From IMG/VR virus record IMGVR_UViG_3300028602_000003: a stretch of 64,000 nucleotides of DNA. The stretch is one strand, 5' to 3'. The notes below the pieces were generated by a model. That model searched no databases. It saw only the letters and a list, made by a program, of their open reading frames with translations, and was not told the DNA's origin. Positions 4,024 to 63,163 of this stretch are shown one piece after another. This DNA comes from an uncultured virus (IMG/VR IMGVR_UViG_3300028602_000003) (lineage: Duplodnaviria; Heunggongvirae; Uroviricota; Caudoviricetes; Schitoviridae). Numbering within the stretch: position 1 is the first letter of the stretch; every line of letters starts with the position of its first letter. The translations under genes were made by a program, and so were the position numbers.

Positions 4024-4259
4024 TGAAACTCATTCTGGAATGGCGTTCAGCATGGAAGTTTGCCTCTATTCAATGGAGTGCCTTGGGTGTGCTACTCATG
4101 TCGCTTGTTGAGTTAGCAAACTACAGTTTCATCAGTCTCCCGCCTAGCCTACAAGCCCAAATACCTCATTCAAGCCAATTGGCTCTCGGCCTGTTTGCGT
4201 TGACTATGGTAGGTAGGCTGCTCAAGCTCAGTGAACCAAAAGATGAAGCCAATCAGTAA
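4020..4259 (+). CDS. Putative holin (2 TM helices)
   Basis: 79 aa, two hydrophobic segments and charged C-terminus; overlaps endolysin start. Confidence 0.6.
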   Translation: MMKLILEWRSAWKFASIQWSALGVLLMSLVELANYSFISLPPSLQAQIPHSSQLALGLFALTMVGRLLKLSEPKDEANQ

Positions 4260-30304: not shown

Positions 30305-31089
30305 CCTTAATGTTCAACATAGGTCGTTAGGCTATGCCCGGATAGTTAATCCAGCTGCATGTCACCATGCAGAGCAGACTATATCTTCATCCCAGTAGGA
30401 TGCTTCCCATTTCGAGCCACTTGGCCCTACGCTTTTCAGCTAGTCGTTGAACGTTCAAATTGGTTTGTCGATCCCGTGATTTGGGTGAAAACCATACTGA
30501 TCTAAGACGGCATTGCGGTCTGCAATGGCATCTTCAATCGAGTAATGAGATTTTAGGTGTACTCGTTTACCCTCAAATGTTACCTCAGCCATGAACTTCT
30601 TCTTGGAATTCTGCTTATTAATCCAGATTCCGGTGTGACCAGTTGAGTTGTCTGATCTCTTAGATTGGTTCCTGTTATTCACTGCCTGCGTCACATCAGT
30701 CAAATTCAGCAGTTTATTGTTCTGCTCGTTATGATCATTGTGATCGAGAAAACCAGTAGGCCATACCCCGTGGTGCAGCCTCCAAATGATGTGGTGTTCT
30801 GGGTATAAAAACCCATTCAACCTGATCACACGGTGCCCATGTGGGGATATAGAACCTGCCCTAGAGCCTACTACTACTTTTCTCGCGTTACCTTTTGCAA
30901 TCCAAGTTAGTTCCCCACTAAGGGGGTCATAACTTAAACGCTCTGACAGTTCTTGCTGAGTTACATCATGTTTTCTCATATTTGCTTCGCTGCTGATTGT
31001 CTGAAATATGATGGTACACCACTATCAGAGTTCCCAGCAATTAGAGAAGTTATCCTATGCTGCTTACGCAGCCAGGGCGCTAATTACTA
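30305..31089 (-). mobile_element. Group I intron with HNH ORF
   Basis: P AATTGCTGGGAA (31031-31042), Q AATCAGCAG (30990-30998), R GTTCAACGACTAG (30440-30452), S AAGATATAGTC (30377-30387); P1 with U.G pair; terminal G. Confidence 0.92.
30455..30979 (-). CDS. Intron-encoded HNH homing endonuclease with AP2-like C-terminus
   Basis: YDP.SG.LTW start, DHNDHNEQNNKLLNL HNH motif, NSTGHTGI. Confidence 0.9.
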   Translation of the reverse strand: MRKHDVTQQELSERLSYDPLSGELTWIAKGNARKVVVGSRAGSISPHGHRVIRLNGFLYPEHHIIWRLHHGVWPTGFLDHNDHNEQNNKLLNLTDVTQAVNNRNQSKRSDNSTGHTGIWINKQNSKKKFMAEVTFEGKRVHLKSHYSIEDAIADRNAVLDQYGFHPNHGIDKPI

Positions 31090-31588
31090 ACGCTTCCACG
31101 CCGTTATTCTTCAGGGCACCCTTGATTGGAACAAAGGTCTTCATTTCCCCTGCTTTCTCATCAAGCTCGTCTTTGACGTGAGCAATGATGATCACAGACT
31201 TCCCGAAGGTTGGTACATGACTCTGCATGATTCGTTTAAAGAACTGTGCATAGTCAGACCACCCTTGCATGGTGTTCGATGAACCAAGTACATACTGGGT
31301 TTCGAACATGTCCATGAGGAAGGTCATACTGTCAACGATCATTCCCTCAACCGAAGGATCTTCTTCGGTTGCGTAGATAAATGCTTCTTCTACCTGAAAT
31401 GGGTCGGTGATGTTAAAGCGTTGGAACTTGTTCTGGAAAGGCAGGCGTTTACCTGCCTCAGTACCTAGATACATCCAGTTCTGCTGATTGCGGATATTCC
31501 GCAAGCTTGCTGACTTACCAGCAGTAGACAAGCCAACAATCAGAACCAGTTGATCCAAGGAGATCTCACTTACATCTTCATCACTCAT
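31090..31588 (-). CDS. gp44-like AAA ATPase (Sak4-like), exon 1
   Basis: Walker A GLSTAGKS, Walker B IVDS. Confidence 0.85.
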
Positions 31589-31641: not shown

Positions 31642-33792
31642 TTACTGGATCTTGGTATACCGTTTAGCAACGGAGGTCAGGATTGTAGTATCAATCTCAG
31701 ACTCACCAAGGGGGTTGTTTAGCTTTTTGTTGAACGCATGCACTTGCTTGCTCACGTCCATCAGATCCATGCCGTTATCCACAAGGGCGAAGGCATACTT
31801 GATCATCTGGTTGTTACGGTTGCCTGAGGCAATACGTTGAGCAAACCAACGCTCAAGATTATCCAAGGACTGAACAGCAGAGAAACCCTGCTTAAACTGC
31901 TCATTCTTGGATGTTTTAGGGATGAATCCCAGAATATCCAGCAGCTCACCTTCAAGGTTGTAGTGGTAACTCCCATCAAAGGACTCCCACTTCTTAGCCC
32001 TTTGGTTCGCAGACTCATCAGTCTTGAACGGTAGCCAAGCCATTACGTTGTCCATGAACTCCTTGTAATCAGCTATGTCCAGCTCAAGGGTGTAGTTCAT
32101 AGGGATAATCAGCCTGAACCGATTCTCCTCATCGGTATGGCGTTTGGTGGTGTAGGTAAGGAACTTGTATTCCTTCAACAGCTCATGGACCGTATCAAGG
32201 CGAACATCCCCATCACAGTCGAGGGCAATCATGTTGAAGCCCACAAGCACGTTTTCTTCAGCACGGTGACCACCCTTGAATTGGTGGTTGGCCCAGTGCA
32301 TACCACTCTCTTGGGTCAGCATGTGCAGCTGATCGAATGGCACCAGCTCTGCGAGATAGTTGTAAGCCCAATGATCGCTATATGAGACAAGCATCTCATC
32401 AAGATTGGTCTCCTCAAGAGTTTCCCCCTTGAAGAACTCAATACCATCCACGAAGGACTTCTTGATAACGATATGCTTCTTGTAGCCCCAGGCTGTGGCC
32501 AAGGTCATCATTTCGTTACGGGCCGCATTACCAGACTTGTAGAATGGCAATGCTTCCAACAAATCAGCATGGGTAACTTCACCATCCACAGCTGCGATGT
32601 ACTTAGCCAGTTTGACGTAAGCCTTCTCACGGGTAAGGATGGACTGGAACGCTTTACCAGACTCTTCCACAAGCAGGATTGCTTGCTTCAGATGGCTCAT
32701 CTCAATCTCAATTGACTGATCAATGAAGGCCAATGTACCGGCCAGTTTGAGTGCCTTGAAGTAGCGGTGCTCCAGTTCTGCCTTACGAATCTCTTCGTGA
32801 TCGGCATATGTTTGGGACAGCTTTTCACACTCGATTTTGTAGGTAAGAAGCTCAATACCCACATCATCATCTACCACTACTTTCCAGCCATAAATGGATG
32901 GATCAGCCAGCTGGTGGAAGTGGTTTGCCCACTTGTTAATGATGGATGAGTTAGACGGACTAACTAGCCGTGTGTATATCTCAGCCGGGGTCAGCGTGTT
33001 GTGGGATTTTTCAGTGATCATTCCCCAACCAAACAGACAACGCCGAGCGTAACCGGTATCCAGAAAATCGTAGAAACGATCCTCAGTCTGCCCACCATCT
33101 AGCAATTTAGAGGGCGTACCGAACATGAGCAGGTTGGTTGGTGTTTTACCATCCATCTCCTCATTTCGTTGGTTCTCGGCTGTGTTCTTGGTCAGCTTTT
33201 GCTTAACCAAACCCTGGTCATACAGCTCCAAGTACATATTGAGAAGTTCGGTAGAACCATCAAGATTGGAACCAATTTCGTCAATTTGTAGGTTGATCGA
33301 ACCACAGTTGGCCATTACCAGTTTATGACGAAGCTGTTTAACAGCAGGCCCAGTACCGGAGTCGAACGTGAAAGGGATAGCCCCAGCACGGCGAAACTCG
33401 GTCTCAGCCTTTTCAAATTCGTCTTGCTGATCAGTGCCATTACGGGCTGCACGGTCATTGGCAATGTCCCAAAGATGCTTTTCAGCAACAACGGGAAAAG
33501 TGTCTTCCATGAAACGCTTCTTAAATCCTGCAAGCAGTTCATTTTCAACGATAGCTACTGAGTGCCCTTTGCCATAGCCAGAAGTGGCTAAGGCTAGGGC
33601 GTAAATATTGACCGGGATTTCACCACGATCTTTGGTGACGATCAGTGCTCGTTGACTACTTGCCATTTTGGCAAGGAAATACGCCACCTCCACACGAAAG
33701 AAACCACGATCAGTATTTTGTGTCTTTGCGCAAAGCACATCGACAATCTCTTCAATAGCCGGATGATGAGTTATCCCTACGAGATCTATCAT
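31642..33792 (-). CDS. DNA primase (N4 gp43/dns-like)
   Basis: 716 aa; SGYGKG P-loop, C-terminal prim-pol (LDCDG, YTTKRH) and PriCT-like GNRNN. Confidence 0.85.
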   Translation of the reverse strand: MIDLVGITHHPAIEEIVDVLCAKTQNTDRGFFRVEVAYFLAKMASSQRALIVTKDRGEIPVNIYALALATSGYGKGHSVAIVENELLAGFKKRFMEDTFPVVAEKHLWDIANDRAARNGTDQQDEFEKAETEFRRAGAIPFTFDSGTGPAVKQLRHKLVMANCGSINLQIDEIGSNLDGSTELLNMYLELYDQGLVKQKLTKNTAENQRNEEMDGKTPTNLLMFGTPSKLLDGGQTEDRFYDFLDTGYARRCLFGWGMITEKSHNTLTPAEIYTRLVSPSNSSIINKWANHFHQLADPSIYGWKVVVDDDVGIELLTYKIECEKLSQTYADHEEIRKAELEHRYFKALKLAGTLAFIDQSIEIEMSHLKQAILLVEESGKAFQSILTREKAYVKLAKYIAAVDGEVTHADLLEALPFYKSGNAARNEMMTLATAWGYKKHIVIKKSFVDGIEFFKGETLEETNLDEMLVSYSDHWAYNYLAELVPFDQLHMLTQESGMHWANHQFKGGHRAEENVLVGFNMIALDCDGDVRLDTVHELLKEYKFLTYTTKRHTDEENRFRLIIPMNYTLELDIADYKEFMDNVMAWLPFKTDESANQRAKKWESFDGSYHYNLEGELLDILGFIPKTSKNEQFKQGFSAVQSLDNLERWFAQRIASGNRNNQMIKYAFALVDNGMDLMDVSKQVHAFNKKLNNPLGESEIDTTILTSVAKRYTKIQ

Positions 33793-34301
33793 GGAAGTAG
33801 CCCCATCATTTTATTAGTGCGAGCAAAATTACCAAAATACTCTACGGCGGCTGCATCGTAAGCCGCAGCTGCTTCTTGGGGTGTATCAAAAGTACCAAGA
33901 TGTTTTGGAGCACCTTTGCTTAGTATTCTTGCAGTGAACTTTTTACGAAACATACGTACTCCTTTAAATCCTGAAATACGATCTGAATGCCCAGAAGAAT
34001 TACCTGAGTTTTGGGAATCTGTGGCTAATCTCAGATTGCTAAAAGCGTTATTGCTGCGGCAAGTATCTTCATGATCTATTCGAGCAGTCGGCCAAATTTT
34101 GTGTATGTAAAACCATGCCAAAACATGGGCGTAGTATCTTTTACCCAGCAGACGGATACTTATGTATCCATGGCTAGTTAAACTACCAGCCACAGCCCCT
34201 ATTTTTATTCGCCTAGCTGAACTGACAAGCCAAGTAAATTCTCCTGTACTCTCATCATATTTTAAGTTTTCTAACAGGGACTCGTGGCTGATTTTATCCA
34301 A
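33789..34301 (-). CDS. Free-standing HNH/AP2 endonuclease (probable TTG start at 34301)
   Basis: YDESTGEFTW, IDHEDTCRSNNAFSNLR, HLGTFDTPQEAAAAYD; AAGGA RBS before TTG; overlaps both neighbours. Confidence 0.85.
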   Translation of the reverse strand: MDKISHESLLENLKYDESTGEFTWLVSSARRIKIGAVAGSLTSHGYISIRLLGKRYYAHVLAWFYIHKIWPTARIDHEDTCRSNNAFSNLRLATDSQNSGNSSGHSDRISGFKGVRMFRKKFTARILSKGAPKHLGTFDTPQEAAAAYDAAAVEYFGNFARTNKMMGLLP

Positions 34302-35265
34302 AGTTGTATTTATCCTTTTGTTTACATAGGTCAAAAGCGTCGCAGTATCCACACCGTTTAGGTGTACCAGGGATTGTGATAACAACCCCCTTACTACCTT
34401 TCTCTACCTGAAAGGCTTTAGCTTCAGCCAAAGAATCAAAGTTTTTGGTAGAGCGCCCAGCAGTCTTGGTGGGGTCGGCATAGTACTTGTAGCTTGGGGT
34501 ACTCAGCCACAGCTCTTCATCAGTACACTCAGGGATTTCATGCTCAGGGGCATTGATGTACTTACTCACTTGGTTCAGCTTGTTGATGACCCAGTTTTCG
34601 GTATCAGTGATGTCAAGCAAAGGAATGTCCTTCGACTCAACACGTTTCTGAGGATACTTAGGATTCTGTCTGGCAGAGGCACCAGACCAATCAGTAAAGA
34701 TGTAGTTGATTCGGATAAAGTCCTCAGTGATCTTATCCGGGTTGAGCCAACGGTAGATGCTGCCTTGCAAGGCATGCTCATCGTCACGACCACCGTACAC
34801 CCAGGTGTAAGCAGAGGTGCTTTTCTGGTCCTGTACGATGCCCTCTGTGACCATATCGAACTTACCGCCAACGGTGTAACCGTTGATTTTGCGTAGAGCA
34901 CGCTGTTCGATGTAGACCAGGATAGGGTCTTTAAACGCTTTGGCTTCTTCATCGGTTGGGTTGATGAGTACCCGCTTAATCACTTCAGCCGGGTAACCAA
35001 GCTTTTGCAGATTACGCTGATAACCCTTAACCCATGATTTCTCAATGGAGTCATGCAGGGAGTTACCCATTGCACGAGGGATGTAGTCAGCTACGTCTGA
35101 GGTACGCATCTCTGGTGGTACACGACGAGGCAGCACGATTTGCCGGATAGGCTTCATCAGCGTGGTGGCAGAGATGTAATTCTCTTCACTGCTGTAATCG
35201 TAATCGTCATGAACCAACCAGACTGCTAGGGATAACGAGATCCCTGAGTTATTGGAGATCTTCAT
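34294..35265 (-). CDS. PD-(D/E)XK exonuclease (N4 gp42-like)
   Basis: GKFD...DQKST nuclease motif, C-terminal RCGYC..FDLC. Confidence 0.8.
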   Translation of the reverse strand: MKISNNSGISLSLAVWLVHDDYDYSSEENYISATTLMKPIRQIVLPRRVPPEMRTSDVADYIPRAMGNSLHDSIEKSWVKGYQRNLQKLGYPAEVIKRVLINPTDEEAKAFKDPILVYIEQRALRKINGYTVGGKFDMVTEGIVQDQKSTSAYTWVYGGRDDEHALQGSIYRWLNPDKITEDFIRINYIFTDWSGASARQNPKYPQKRVESKDIPLLDITDTENWVINKLNQVSKYINAPEHEIPECTDEELWLSTPSYKYYADPTKTAGRSTKNFDSLAEAKAFQVEKGSKGVVITIPGTPKRCGYCDAFDLCKQKDKYNFG

Positions 35266-36099: not shown

Positions 36100-36936
36100 T
36101 CAGAGTGATTCAACGTGCTCTTGGATCAGACCACGTATTTCTTCTTCAGAAGCCCCGTTAGGGATTTCCATTTCATCCTTCCAGCTAGGCCAGAAGATGG
36201 ACAACTCACCACCTAAACCTACATCGGGGTGGCGAATATCAGGGTGATCCTGCCATTGCACAGCCTTCACCAGATGCTCATTCGTGAACATCATTACGTC
36301 GATGTCATCACGAATCATGGAGTATTGCGCATCATGGATGTGGGCACATGGTCGTATGGACAGGCGGTGTTTAGAGGCACGTACCTTAGCCCGGAACTCG
36401 TTACTAGCTCGTGAGTTCAGTAGGCACCAGCTTTGCCCAAGGGCATTACCGGCAGTACGTCCTTCTGCTGACGCAGCAAACGGGGTTTTACTGTTGTTCA
36501 GGATGACCTGTTTCAGCAGTGGGGTGCGTACACGGAGGCCGAATGCTACCGTCACGTAGCCGTCTTTGCTAGCCTGCTCAAGCTTATCGTTGATCCACTT
36601 ATCACTCTCTGCATAGAGTTCGTGATAGCGGGTTTCGATAGCTTGTGCTTTCTCTTTGGTCCAACCAAGGTTTCTCATCAAGGTGATGTATGTCCCTTGA
36701 TAAGTAAGGGCGAAAGTTGGGGCCTTGGACTCATCACGAAGATCAGGAAACTTCTTCTTGATTGAGTTAATGGACTCTACGGTATTCACGATCCCGGTCA
36801 TCTGATCAGGAAAATAGCTGAATGCGCGTAGGCAATGGCCATCGTAGCCGGCAGTTTTACCTGATTTTTTAATTGAAAAATTGGCCCCTATTGGGATTTC
36901 AATTGTTGATTTTGCTAAGGTTTCGTAGTGCTGCAT
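36100..36936 (-). CDS. DNA polymerase family A, C-terminal fragment (motifs B and C)
   Basis: GYDGHCLRA, RDESKAPTFALTYQG (motif B), IHDA (motif C); own GGAGG RBS 10 nt before ATG. Confidence 0.9.
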   Translation of the reverse strand: MQHYETLAKSTIEIPIGANFSIKKSGKTAGYDGHCLRAFSYFPDQMTGIVNTVESINSIKKKFPDLRDESKAPTFALTYQGTYITLMRNLGWTKEKAQAIETRYHELYAESDKWINDKLEQASKDGYVTVAFGLRVRTPLLKQVILNNSKTPFAASAEGRTAGNALGQSWCLLNSRASNEFRAKVRASKHRLSIRPCAHIHDAQYSMIRDDIDVMMFTNEHLVKAVQWQDHPDIRHPDVGLGGELSIFWPSWKDEMEIPNGASEEEIRGLIQEHVESL

Positions 36937-37438
36937 TACGTCGGGCCTCCCGCATAGCTTCAGTCCATTTATTGTGAATACCTAGCCGTTTAGCTGTATC
37001 GCGCAACATTTTAGAAAGAGTTTCGGGAGCGCGCCCAATTTCTATAGCTAATTCAGGAACTGGTTTACCTGCTAAGACAGCCGCAAGATGATTTTCTTTT
37101 TCATCAGCTGACATATAGCCGGGGCGTAATCCAGTTCTAAAAGCGTGCTCAATGTTTTCAACTGCTGAGCACCACTCTAAGTTACTAACATGATTGTTAG
37201 TTTTCACCCCGTCCTTATGATTTACTTGCGGATATTCATAAGGATTTGGTATGTAATGCAGTGCTACTAATCTGTGTACTGCAAATATCTTGTGACCTCC
37301 TCTCCCATCCGCTAACCCAACAACTAAGTAACCGTTGTTGTGTTTTATTGGGGCCAGAAGAGTGTTATTAGCTAGATTGATTACCCCACCAGAAACACTG
37401 ATTTTGTATCTGTTTTCATAACGCGCAATAGGCATCAT
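36899..37438 (-). CDS. HNH endonuclease (NUMOD4-like N-terminus) inserted in DNA polymerase gene
   Basis: VHRLVA...VNHKDGVKTNNHVSNLEW; overlaps both polymerase fragments. Confidence 0.9.
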   Translation of the reverse strand: MMPIARYENRYKISVSGGVINLANNTLLAPIKHNNGYLVVGLADGRGGHKIFAVHRLVALHYIPNPYEYPQVNHKDGVKTNNHVSNLEWCSAVENIEHAFRTGLRPGYMSADEKENHLAAVLAGKPVPELAIEIGRAPETLSKMLRDTAKRLGIHNKWTEAMREARRNAALRNLSKINN

Positions 37439-39380
37439 AGAATGCACCCCCAGTATAGGTTTTACCGTCGTGGATGATTGTAGCATCATCACGGATATGA
37501 TGGTCAACCCCATTTATGGTGAGGGTATAAATTACTACGCCGGTGTAAACCTTCAGCTTATTGCTGTCCTTTGTGGTCAGAGCACTGATTCGATCCTCCA
37601 GTGATGCAAAGTCCAGCCCAACAAACAACCAGCCTGGTGGTGCCTGGAAACAGGACTTGAGTAACTTGCCATAGATGCCCTTAACAGGCATGTTCTGTAG
37701 GTTGATCTTGCTGGAACTGAGCCGACCAGAGACTGTGCCACCAAGGTTGAAGTTACCAAACAAGTAGTGCCAACCATCTGGCCCCATAGGTGCATTCACC
37801 ATTGGTTCAATGAAGCTGGTGATCACTTTGTTTACTAACTTAAAGTCCACCAAAGCAGCCAGCAGTTCTTTCACTACTGGATCAGCAGTATGAAACTGAA
37901 GTGCCTTGAGGGTGTCTCCGTCAGTGGATGGTTGTTTGCTTTTAGTAAGCCCTAAAATAGGCAGACCCAAGCGGTTAAACAGTAGATCCTGAAGTTGGTC
38001 GTTTGAGTTGGGATTGAAGACTTCCTTGGCATCTGCCATAGACACACGTTTCTTCACGAGTGTCGTGTTCTTCATGTGTACCCATGCTTCATTCATCTCA
38101 TGGGTATACTTCTCAATAACAGGAGATTTGCGGATCTTAGTTAAAGCTGCTGCCTCGTCAGCAAGCAGAATAGCCTTAACCTCCATTACCCTCTTATGGT
38201 TCAGTGGCATGCCTGTTAGTTGCATCTCAACGATGTCTACACAGGTAGGCTTAAACAGGGTGTCATAAATCTCTAGTTGCTGGTCTCGTACCATAACGGG
38301 ATAGTTCTTTTCCCGTACATGCCATGTGCTGAGACTGTCTACCAAGTTGTACTGAAGCAGGCGCTCCAAAGGGATCTTGGTAATATCCTTGATCTCTTCC
38401 TCTGCATAATTACCTGCAAATTCCTGAGCTTGGTCTTTAAGCCCTAACTTGTTGCCAGCACAAGAGTTAGTGGCTAAGTAACTGATTTGCTTAGTGCAAT
38501 CGAAGTTACTCATCATCACATCCAATCCATGAAGTAGTCCCTCAGTATCAAGAAGGTCTTTCATATACAGCTGGTAAATCAGGATGTAGATGTCAAAGCA
38601 GGCATTGTGGTAGATGGCTTTTTGGGCGTATTTATCAAAGAACTCCCGCAATAAAGCACGGACTTCATGATTTACCATATTGGTTCCAAAGGGTGCTTTA
38701 GTAGCACCAGGAATCTCTTCATAGTCCACAGCGAAGGCAATGCCTTCATTCTTGTTCCATGCAAAAGAGATTGAACCAATACCGGCGTCATAGTGCTTTA
38801 GCCCAAACGCCTCAATGTCAATTGTGAGAGGACAGTTCATGTCGAGAAGCTTGTCCAACCACACCTTAATATCTTGGGTAGTTACCGGGTATTCGGCAAA
38901 GTGAATAATGTCTGCACCTGGGTCGGTGTAGTTATTCTGGTGCAGGGATATGACAGTCTCCATGCCCTGTTTAATCTTTGCCCCAATCTTCACAGGGTCA
39001 TAGAACATAGCCCGGTAGTTGGGAACGTAAACAACTTTGAAATCTCCATACCCAGAGTCCAATGCATAACCTAAATGGGCTTCTGCTTTGGCCACTCCAG
39101 CAAGTTCCTTGAAGTAGTCAGCATCAGCAACCACAACAATCTCTGCTTTAGCTGTTCTCAGTACGTCGGTAAGTACCTCTTTGCAGTACTGACGTATTTC
39201 AGAAACTGGAGTCTTCTTCTTGGTTTGGCTGTAAGACAGCCCTACGACGAGTACCTCATTGGGGTCTATGTTGAAGGGGGTAATGTAGGTCTTTGCAATA
39301 TCATCCTTACGGATTGTTGGAACCAAGAAGGTGATTGGATAGCCGTCCAATTCTTCTTCAGAGAAGACTAAGTAATTCAT
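37416..39380 (-). CDS. DNA polymerase family A, N-terminal fragment (3'-5' exonuclease and motif A)
   Basis: ExoI IDIEA, YHNACFD, YNLVD; GTVSGRLSS, INLQN, motif A DFASLEDR. Confidence 0.92.
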   Translation of the reverse strand: MNYLVFSEEELDGYPITFLVPTIRKDDIAKTYITPFNIDPNEVLVVGLSYSQTKKKTPVSEIRQYCKEVLTDVLRTAKAEIVVVADADYFKELAGVAKAEAHLGYALDSGYGDFKVVYVPNYRAMFYDPVKIGAKIKQGMETVISLHQNNYTDPGADIIHFAEYPVTTQDIKVWLDKLLDMNCPLTIDIEAFGLKHYDAGIGSISFAWNKNEGIAFAVDYEEIPGATKAPFGTNMVNHEVRALLREFFDKYAQKAIYHNACFDIYILIYQLYMKDLLDTEGLLHGLDVMMSNFDCTKQISYLATNSCAGNKLGLKDQAQEFAGNYAEEEIKDITKIPLERLLQYNLVDSLSTWHVREKNYPVMVRDQQLEIYDTLFKPTCVDIVEMQLTGMPLNHKRVMEVKAILLADEAAALTKIRKSPVIEKYTHEMNEAWVHMKNTTLVKKRVSMADAKEVFNPNSNDQLQDLLFNRLGLPILGLTKSKQPSTDGDTLKALQFHTADPVVKELLAALVDFKLVNKVITSFIEPMVNAPMGPDGWHYLFGNFNLGGTVSGRLSSSKINLQNMPVKGIYGKLLKSCFQAPPGWLFVGLDFASLEDRISALTTKDSNKLKVYTGVVIYTLTINGVDHHIRDDATIIHDGKTYTGGAFYDAYCAL

Positions 39381-61160: not shown

Positions 61161-62142
61161 CACTTGTTTACTGTGAGCGTTACCTCACAGCCTTAGACAC
61201 CATGATTAACATGGAAACCATATTTCACATCAGCAGCTTTCCTGGCTGCGGCTGCTTCATCTAGTGTTTTGTAAGAGCCTAATCCGACTTGTTTACGATT
61301 CACCATAATGAAAGCTTGGTACTTACCTGACGGTAATTTACGTACTCCTTGTACGCCGGATGTGTTATTGCGACGCAATCGCATATTCATCTGGTTTTCT
61401 CGACTACCCACATCTCTCATGTTGAGCCAACGATTGTTGGACCGGTCATGATCAATGTGGTCAATCTGTACTGGCCACTCTCCTGTCTGCATCATCCATA
61501 TGACCCTATGGGCAAGGTATTCCTTTCCCCCAATAGACATACTGCGATACCCCCCACTATGTGAGTAAGTAGCAATATTCCCCTTGGTTCCCTGTAAAGT
61601 GTCCAGCTTTCTTGTTATTTCCCCTGAGTAAGGGCAGTAACTAAAGACTGCTAGTAACTCTGCTTGGGTTATTACGGTCATATTTGTTATGCGGTTTTTG
61701 CACTGATAACAGAGATGCCCTACGTTGCTTTTGCGGGCATCGTAGATGTTTACTACGTACCGGTTTGGGCAGTAGTGGCATACGCATTTGGCTTTGTGTT
61801 TGGAGAGTTTTTGAATAATTTGATGGTCTTGTAGCATATGGCTTACTCGGTTTGTGCATGATGGTTTAGATCATACCCTAACCTTGTTACTAAGTCTCCG
61901 TCTTTCGTCGGAGTGTCGGACTATATCTTCACCCTCTGTAAACAGTAGGGGCAAGGCACTTCAGCGGGGACTTCCCTCGCTTACGGACATTATTCACCGT
62001 TCTGGTGTCTCGTCCTAGTCTCTGAACCTTCTATACATTCCTGCATAGCTTGGCTGCTGATTGGCATAGGCGTAAGCCCTTAGCTTTCCAGCAATTCACC
62101 TTGTATCGGTACGGATTACTCCGTAAAGGACCGTTTATATTC
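61161..62142 (-). mobile_element. Group I intron with HNH ORF in the 3' (P9) region
   Basis: P AATTGCTGGAAA (62085-62096), Q AATCAGCAG (62054-62062), R GTTCAGAGACTA (62016-62027), S AAGATATAGTC (61919-61929); P1 GACU/GGUC. Confidence 0.93.
61193..61837 (-). CDS. Intron-encoded HNH endonuclease with N-terminal Cys cluster and AP2-like C-terminus
   Basis: CHYC...CYQC, IDHIDHDRSNNRWLN, NNTSGVQGV. Confidence 0.9.
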   Translation of the reverse strand: MLQDHQIIQKLSKHKAKCVCHYCPNRYVVNIYDARKSNVGHLCYQCKNRITNMTVITQAELLAVFSYCPYSGEITRKLDTLQGTKGNIATYSHSGGYRSMSIGGKEYLAHRVIWMMQTGEWPVQIDHIDHDRSNNRWLNMRDVGSRENQMNMRLRRNNTSGVQGVRKLPSGKYQAFIMVNRKQVGLGSYKTLDEAAAARKAADVKYGFHVNHGV

Positions 62143-63163
62143 AGTCATGCACAGTCAGGATCTGGAAAGGCTTCTCAGGCAGGCTGTCGATAAGCTCCCA
62201 GATGTCCTTGTGATCCACCAGCATGGCGTTATGCACCTGGATATGATCCAAGATGCGTGCAGACAGATAGCCGGTCTTCTTGTAGTGATCCCACAAGGTC
62301 TGGACCATACGGCTATCTTTATCCTCCTTTGGTTCCTCAATGATGTGGCAGTTGTCCATAGCGTTGATGCAACGAATGATCACAGCAGGATCATAGTCAC
62401 AGCGACGTACCATCTCACGAACGATCATGCCGTCAAAGGTGTGGGTTGAGTTAGCCCCCAATGAACGACCGCCTTCGGTAGGCATATTCACTTCAGTGAA
62501 TACATCGAAAGGCTCATTAAGGAAGTGAACAGTCTCTTTGACTTTGCCCATTACCTTCCACTTAGCATGGAAGTTGTCAGGCATCACCAGTGAGTAGCTG
62601 TAAGCTTCTGGGTTCCAAATAGACAGGTATGTCTCATTCAGTTCCCATGCAGCAGGAGCTACTGTCTTCATCACGTCGTAGAACACGTTAAGCAATGTAC
62701 CTGTGCCAAATACATCCTTAGGCACAGCAGTGGAGCCATACAGCGCAGTCAGGATGGCATCCTTGGTTCGCTCTCGGGAGATAACACTGCTCTCGCCAAG
62801 GGCACGTACCATCATCTCGTAGATGACTGTGTAGGCATCCTCACGGTCACCTGTATCAACTACGTTGCACAGTTCAGCAGCACTGCGATCACCTGTCAGT
62901 ACAGCCAAGATCTGGAAACCAGAGGCAGTAGCATCGAGTGAGATTGGGTAGCCAGAAGCTTCACCACGTTCAGCTGCCTTGAAGGCATTGATACCAGCGA
63001 AGTACATAGCTGGTTCTTTGGCTTCTTTGATGAGATCAAGCAGGTGGTGACTATTGTTGTCGAACCAAGTAAGACGCTCATTCCAGCTCTTCTTGTCTAA
63101 GCCATAGCTGTTGGCTATGTCGATCTTTAGATACTCTTTACCAGTGAAAGTTTGAAAAGCCAT
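62143..63163 (-). CDS. RNA polymerase II subunit 2 (N4 gp16-like), exon 1
   Basis: YLKIDIAN, motif A DATASGFQ, motif B K.AI....YGS; ends at motif C VHD. Confidence 0.9.

Follow-up and report, generated by a model that had tools for sequence, protein, structure and literature searches.

A homing endonuclease cassette divides a family A DNA polymerase gene of N4-like phages and endows the two chains with what is probably a split assembly domain

Genes in pieces that are rescued by tails are already known in phages, T4 gp39/gp60 and Aeh1 nrdA being examples. In T4, the MobA element brings a C-terminal extension of about 44 amino acids (aa) to gp39 and an N-terminal extension to gp60, both of which persist after loss of the endonuclease and in secondary fusions (10.1101/2022.08.31.505936). 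By cryo-electron microscopy the T4 topoisomerase insertion of about 70 aa forms a pendant domain, proposed to act as an assembly chaperone (PMC11461880; PDB 8YO3). In Aeh1, where the gene order is nrdA-a, mobE, nrdA-b, the HNH-borne C- and N-terminal extensions are described as needed for activity and higher-order assembly and as dispensable for binding of the fragments to each other; Crona and colleagues expect them to be one-offs tuned to each split and leave their origin open between random DNA and, as an alternative, a degenerate intein (PMC3045599). Here we describe a related arrangement in a stretch of 64,000 nucleotides (nt) from an uncultured virus of the Schitoviridae (IMG/VR record IMGVR_UViG_3300028602_000003), the whole of which is referred to as the window. 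In it an essential polymerase gene is cut into two open reading frames (ORFs) by a homing endonuclease gene, and the cassette appears to carry a split domain that helps the two chains of the family A polymerase (PolA) assemble non-covalently, a reading to which we give a probability of roughly 0.7.

The best-matching records for region 36100-39380 of the window are N4-like phages (Schitoviridae). Its features, including the sequences that we take to be polymerase motifs A, B and C, are the following:

37416..39380, minus strand: ORF of the PolA N-fragment, 654 aa, with an exonuclease-like region, the thumb and motif A, and then the tail
37590..37613, minus strand: presumed motif A, DFASLEDR, on the N-fragment
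37419..37541, minus strand: C-terminal tail of the N-fragment, 41 aa (residues 614-654), acidic
36899..37438, minus strand: ORF of the HNH homing endonuclease (NUMOD4-like, HNH_3, helix-turn-helix-like), likely start at 37438, frame open from 37513
36946..36950, minus strand: GGAGG, the ribosome-binding site for the C-fragment, which lies within the HNH ORF, 9 nt before the leader ATG
36847..36936, minus strand: N-terminal leader of the C-fragment, 29 aa, plus the junction Gly, basic
36100..36936, minus strand: ORF of the PolA C-fragment, 278 aa
36694..36726, minus strand: presumed motif B, KAPTFALTYQG, on the C-fragment
36328..36342, minus strand: presumed motif C, HIHDA, on the C-fragment
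36847..37540, minus strand: putative mobile cassette (tail, HNH gene and leader), 694 nt, its bounds drawn from relatives (locus L019 and an uninterrupted contig of run X2)
37539-37543 (copy 1) and 36847-36851 (copy 2), minus strand: CCGGC repeat, not conserved and judged a chance match around two Gly codons
36769..36792, minus strand: second split site of the PolA family, unoccupied in the window

An ORF check and Pfam bore out the layout drawn in a preliminary description made from the sequence of the window, with three minus-strand ORFs at these positions and the HNH ORF lying between the two PolA ORFs and overlapping both; the 41-aa tail, the 29-aa leader and the GGAGG site are likewise as described there. 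Positions 20-180 of the DNA_pol_A profile fall in the 654-aa ORF (E 3e-25) and positions 200-303 in the 278-aa ORF (E 1e-10), and the HNH_3 domain of the middle ORF scores above the cut-off (E 4.4e-7). The same 540-nt HNH coding sequence (CDS) is annotated, with a ribosome-binding site, in phage Pylas. The uninterrupted relatives read KLKVYT-DG-YDGH at this position, hereafter site 1 (phage G7C, together with 56 of 80 IMG/VR loci that are plain continuous), or KVYT-DN-YDGH in close relatives, and the cassette takes the place of about 5 nt of this empty allele.

The split is not an assembly artefact, because the same layout is present in all six split cultured-phage records examined (VEc25, AlfredRasser, SP5M, PD205, Pylas and Pollock). 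Among the IMG/VR relatives, for which the best 80 of 190 loci were kept, some of them near-duplicates, 11 have the site-1 split. No split locus with both ends visible was without a tail or without a leader, and the leader stands at the start of 54 of 86 C-fragment relatives (counted by eye). A Shine-Dalgarno (SD)-like motif precedes the C-fragment in 12 of 15 site-1 loci; the tail is acidic in 15 of 15 and the leader basic in 12 of 15. Across the 15 loci the tail differs at the three codon positions by 0.24, 0.23 and 0.48, and five close pairs, which overlap and are not independent, contain 27 synonymous and 10 non-synonymous codon changes. The extensions are retained where the endonuclease has been lost (L017, L056-L058 and L067); in L017 the split, the tail, the leader and a new SD motif remain. 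By these comparisons, tail and leader are element-derived protein parts under selection, absent from the empty allele.

The deposited records suggest a different reading, in which the insert splices itself out as an intron that carries an HNH gene, and the polymerase is produced as one chain. The CDS is annotated as joined in two of the six cultured records (AlfredRasser and Pylas, whose entry explicitly says intron), intron bounds were placed through genome comparison in the BASEL paper (PMC8594841), and a genuine group I intron does occur at least once in the window. However, only about 102 and 52 nt of the insert lie outside the HNH ORF, the small remainder that the preliminary description had noted, and nearly all of this DNA is coding and under selection. 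No conserved splice-site bases were found at the junctions across the split loci, and RNA at the junctions, and at both starts, folded no better than shuffled sequences (z -0.46 to 0.29). Furthermore, L017, from which the HNH gene is gone, is still split with about 17 nt between the ORFs, and polymerases re-fused into one chain (see below) retain the inserted residues. Rfam, whose sensitivity is limited here, gave no group I match in the insert at either threshold; this null is a weak argument by itself, because in the whole window Rfam calls just one group I intron (61896-62152, 83.5 bits), where three had been counted before. We hold an intron to be highly improbable; the coding DNA under selection, the variable junction bases and L017 support the earlier proposal of two chains made without splicing.

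One chain could also be restored by trans-splicing of an atypical split intein, or by ribosome hopping or DNA excision at the CCGGC repeat. The best PDB match of both tail profiles is indeed a split intein, that of Aes123 PolB1 (9HTH; E 0.0012 and 0.014 among 177,635 sequences), and the CCGGC copies stand in the same codon phase. Against this, the tail-leader module has about half the length of a Hint domain, and the intein residues (N-terminal Cys/Ser, block B TxxH, C-terminal HN followed by Cys/Ser/Thr) are missing from tail and leader, in line with the earlier claim that there are no intein ends. The repeat exists as first reported, but a role for it in circularisation or hopping is not supported: a 5-nt repeat is missing from the junctions of all 12 other split loci compared (longest 4 nt, read by eye), where only one Gly codon on each side is common to all and third positions vary freely, and no stop codon follows the 5' copy. 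Excision or hopping at CCGGC was rejected on this ground, and the idea of a DNA circle fails for the same reason; nor is the repeat a target duplication, because relatives place the cassette at 37540-36847, replacing about 5 nt. Restoration of one chain by any of these routes is scarcely credible, and two separate chains remain the preferred reading.

The cassette appears to be mobile. Locus L019 shares 99.6% identity with the window across 40700-37541 and 97.5% across 36708-34412, yet it lacks the site-1 cassette and has a different one about 25 codons further on. Four public assemblies were compared with L019. In run X2 a 276-nt contig (depth 3.9) with window-type letters runs through site 1 uninterrupted, and in run X1 a contig runs uninterrupted through the second site. 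From the L019 comparison together with these two contigs, we conclude at the sequence level that a single phage lineage includes empty alleles as well as alleles occupied at site 1 or site 2. The swap of cassettes between near-identical flanks is an indirect sign of homing by the HNH protein, which, by analogy, would nick the empty allele.

The second split site of PolA, about 25 residues on, is used in 13 of the 80 loci, of which L071 is an uncertain case; the halves are separated by an HNH gene or by unrelated genes, or have nothing between them. The tails of the two sites match at HHalign probability 97-98.4 and score 58.5, whereas the best of 60 column shuffles reached 12.1. Recurrence of the tails at another split site, a check that the preliminary description had proposed, was thus found within the same gene, and by profile comparison the tail is a portable module, in use at both of these PolA sites. 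A merged tail profile gave 72 matches among 1.84 billion proteins, 64 of them PolA tails from the two sites and 8 repeat proteins (sorted by eye). Pfam returned nothing at cut-off and no intein match for 21 tails, and no cultured phage with a site-2 cassette surfaced in the searches.

Several site-2 loci have features of their own. In L079, L130 and L133 the tails are cut back after the first hairpin and the leaders are short. A 647-aa ORF lies between the PolA halves of L038 (3380-5323) and is presumably a class II ribonucleotide reductase. One further protein, P0011, is an N4-like PolA piece with a C-intein-like segment at its start and a site-1 tail at its end, a split intein and a tail cassette in one gene. 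In addition, in all three site-2 loci with an HNH gene, motif B of the C-fragment is interrupted by an insert of 5-6 nt that includes a stop codon (L019 ~4050-4054, L046 ~4165-4170, L055 ~4082-4088), at three different codons and each time as CT-stop-CT; the insert is present in 0 of 8 distinct site-2 loci without HNH in which motif B is in view (Fisher p 0.006, with loci that are not independent). The assembly of run X3, which may share its source with L019, repeats the L019 insert letter for letter, and record 8 of the same run matches up to that motif-B codon (L019 4048) and continues as unrelated sequence, which suggests a longer insertion, perhaps an intron, at this codon. A DNA pattern scan for further micro-insertions in motif B returned L019's own contig alone among 22 matches. 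These inserts bring to mind the bypass in T4 gene 60, a shield against MobA, and a stop-hop or a frameshift may be involved in reading them.

We then compared the module with the described systems. As in T4 MobA, an HNH cassette adds C- and N-terminal extensions that are kept after endonuclease loss, and secondary fusions occur. The PolA tails align ungapped with an alignment of six MobA extensions over 33-35 columns (HHalign probability 91.7-94.9), with a score of 31.9 at probability 94.5 over 34 ungapped columns; the best of 60 shuffles reached 13.0 and the reversed profile 9.5. A common origin of PolA and MobA tails, though remote, is therefore likely on this profile evidence. The two differ in host enzyme and phage family, site 1 has no 50-nt ribosome bypass, the C-fragment ORF being open for 278 aa, the PolA leader is not alignable to the gp60 extension, and PolA has two sites in one gene as well as three-piece forms. 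A scan of viral contigs for MobA extensions returned unsplit topoisomerases alone; one locus, L124 (Aeromonas phage CC2), has a single-chain topoisomerase that includes the fused MobA extensions, a counterpart of the re-fused polymerase P0163 described below.

The precedent named in the preliminary description, Aeh1 nrdA, also holds, extensions from an HNH element being described there (PMC3045599) and in T4 gp39/gp60. In both Aeh1 nrdA and PolA the HNH gene divides active-site residues between two chains, the tails have opposite charges and there is no splicing. By their published description, the Aeh1 tails are unique, without database match, and predicted to vary with the site, whereas the PolA tails are a conserved family at two sites; the charge polarity is reversed in PolA.

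The intein match deserves separate consideration. The Hint fold has internal symmetry. It is described as built of two lobes (PMC11923092), and Aes123 PolB1, one of the fractured genes in which split inteins flank an endonuclease, resembles our locus in being arranged as an N-part with an extension, an endonuclease, and an extension with the C-part (JN377899; PMC11923092). Against a set of 49-53 relatives of the Aes123 PolB1 intein family, the second half of the PolA tail resembles the first strands and helix of the intein (probability 77.8, score 25.1; best of 25 shuffles 15.5, reversed 14.5). The second intein lobe gave a marginal 5.0 with the tail and 20.5 with the MobA extension. Unlike that intein, the PolA module is half-size and without catalytic residues, and its leader has no match to the C-intein (HHalign 0.2). 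It is conceivable, as a lead from a partial link, that the PolA module is one symmetric Hint half without catalytic residues; if so, its ends would for that reason be able to replace two loop residues. A further two-chain replicative polymerase, gp43A/gp43B of T4-related phages, is said to have been described by Petrov in 2010 and reportedly has unrelated genes between its halves, as do the site-2 loci L038, L061 and L079; by this account it belongs to family B, which sets it apart.

Other proteins of the family combine these parts. P0062, P0065 and P0072 are short single proteins made of a site-1 leader, a polymerase piece and a site-2 tail, and because they carry both leader and tail they imply, from proteins alone, natural three-chain polymerases. 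In-frame single-chain re-fusions also exist (P0133, and P0163 with 947 aa and 5 members). Their order is tail, linker, leader, which does not support the circular fusion proposed earlier, leader and then tail, as the natural form. No DNA locus was found for the re-fused P0133. These single-chain forms with the whole insertion could be taken to mean that tail and leader are an older in-frame PolA insertion domain, later cut by an HNH gene, and not cargo of the cassette. But there are just 2 fused clusters against 54 split C-fragments, the lineage of the window has an empty allele without the module, the plain continuous form prevails in the 56 loci mentioned above, and the fused forms carry an extra low-confidence linker at the break. 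This history is barely tenable, and we regard the extensions as probably brought in by the cassette.

In an AlphaFold2 model of P0133, made from 26 alignment rows chosen so that the tails aligned correctly, the tail forms four strands and a helix (predicted local distance difference test, pLDDT, 73-77), the leader two strands (pLDDT 68) and the linker has a pLDDT of 32-40; a single-sequence fold of P0072 reached pLDDT 36. In fold searches with the P0133 model the polymerase domain filled both lists, so the module was barely sampled. The module itself gave a best value of 0.84 in the ESM Atlas, in small unnamed or PolA-linked clusters, which is a lead only. Prediction of a tail-leader complex from the window sequences scored 0.33, against 0.02 for the best of three controls, which is weak support; the runs agree in at least 89% of contacts, with a partner pLDDT of at least 59. 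Of 157 solved pairs, 116 reached the mark for this score, as did 2 of 215 mismatched pairs; at complex scores of 0.60 or below, however, it was reached by just 18 of the 157 solved pairs and by both mismatches. The pass may moreover stem from likeness, because a like domain has already been solved (8YO3).

Taken together, these data are consistent with the following model. A homing cassette (tail, HNH gene, leader) would have replaced about two codons of a loop that separates motifs A and B in an N4-like PolA, and one mRNA would give three overlapping proteins, each translated separately. The N-fragment would end in an acidic four-strand tail, a portable module probably related to the T4 MobA gp39 extension, and the C-fragment would start with a basic two-strand leader. 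Tail and leader would bind each other and fold into a pendant beta-domain, about 70 residues in size, which would hold the cut ends near each other and aid assembly into one polymerase; this polymerase would need the tails and would require neither RNA nor protein splicing. As proposed by analogy with MobA, the HNH protein would nick the empty allele in co-infecting phages, into which the cassette would then be copied. Of the domain put forward in the preliminary description, protein parts that are under selection and belong to one small beta-rich module have thus been found; that they hold the cut ends together we still infer.

Some results weigh against this model. Taken as a whole, the P0133 model is of poor quality (mean pLDDT 58.5; predicted template modelling score 0.50), with only 4 alignment rows for the leader. 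The leaders of sites 1 and 2 and the MobA N-terminal extension gave no profile match to one another (HHalign 0.3-0.5), from alignments of just 4 short rows. When the tail profiles were run in HMMER, 8YO3 was not among the matches at E values of up to 10, and there were no topoisomerase tails among the 72 matches in the search of 1.84 billion proteins; because of these two nulls the case for the T4 link comes from aligning profiles in pairs over a short beta-hairpin pattern. Finally, the role of the PolA tails may differ from that proposed here, because the Aeh1 tails are dispensable for fragment binding.

The last point leads to the view that the two chains assemble through their own interfaces, and that tail and leader serve stability, higher-order assembly, partner binding or translational coupling. 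The Aeh1 tail deletions, which left the heterodimer intact (PMC3045599), favour it, as do the leaders, variable in length and not alignable between sites, the weak complex score and the site-2 tails that end early after the first hairpin (L079, L130, L133). On the other hand, every split locus with both ends in view has tail and leader, the two lie side by side in the natural re-fusions and have opposite charges, and the T4 extensions form one pendant domain (PMC11461880). Assembly through the own interfaces is unlikely on balance, and we favour a cassette-borne domain that helps the chains come together.

Elsewhere in the window, two more HNH-like ORFs (30455-30979 and 33789-34385, labelled by eye) overlap or abut replication genes. 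The ORF at 31064-31588 stops just before the first of them and may itself be interrupted.

No description of this PolA split or of its tails was found in the literature searched, which covered few subscription journals. As far as searched, new features are the family A polymerase, the conserved tail family at two sites, the three-piece and re-fused forms and, probably, to judge from the profiles, the shared origin with the T4 extension. It is also probable that some of the 'intron' joins deposited for N4-like polymerases are mistaken. With one conserved family of tails serving two sites of PolA and, probably, T4 topoisomerase as well, the questions of tail uniqueness and origin become testable, and coliphages such as AlfredRasser, in which the 70-residue domain is present, provide a test system. 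If the clasp is portable, it would be a very small natural tool for joining split proteins. More tentatively, a splicing-dead Hint half might be a general self-assembling clasp, one stackable family used by several homing endonucleases in unrelated essential genes. If true, it would extend over the two N4-like PolA sites and T4-type topoisomerase II, its stacking would lead to three-chain polymerases, and it would be a third way, next to introns and inteins, and one whose origin could be traced to a single source.

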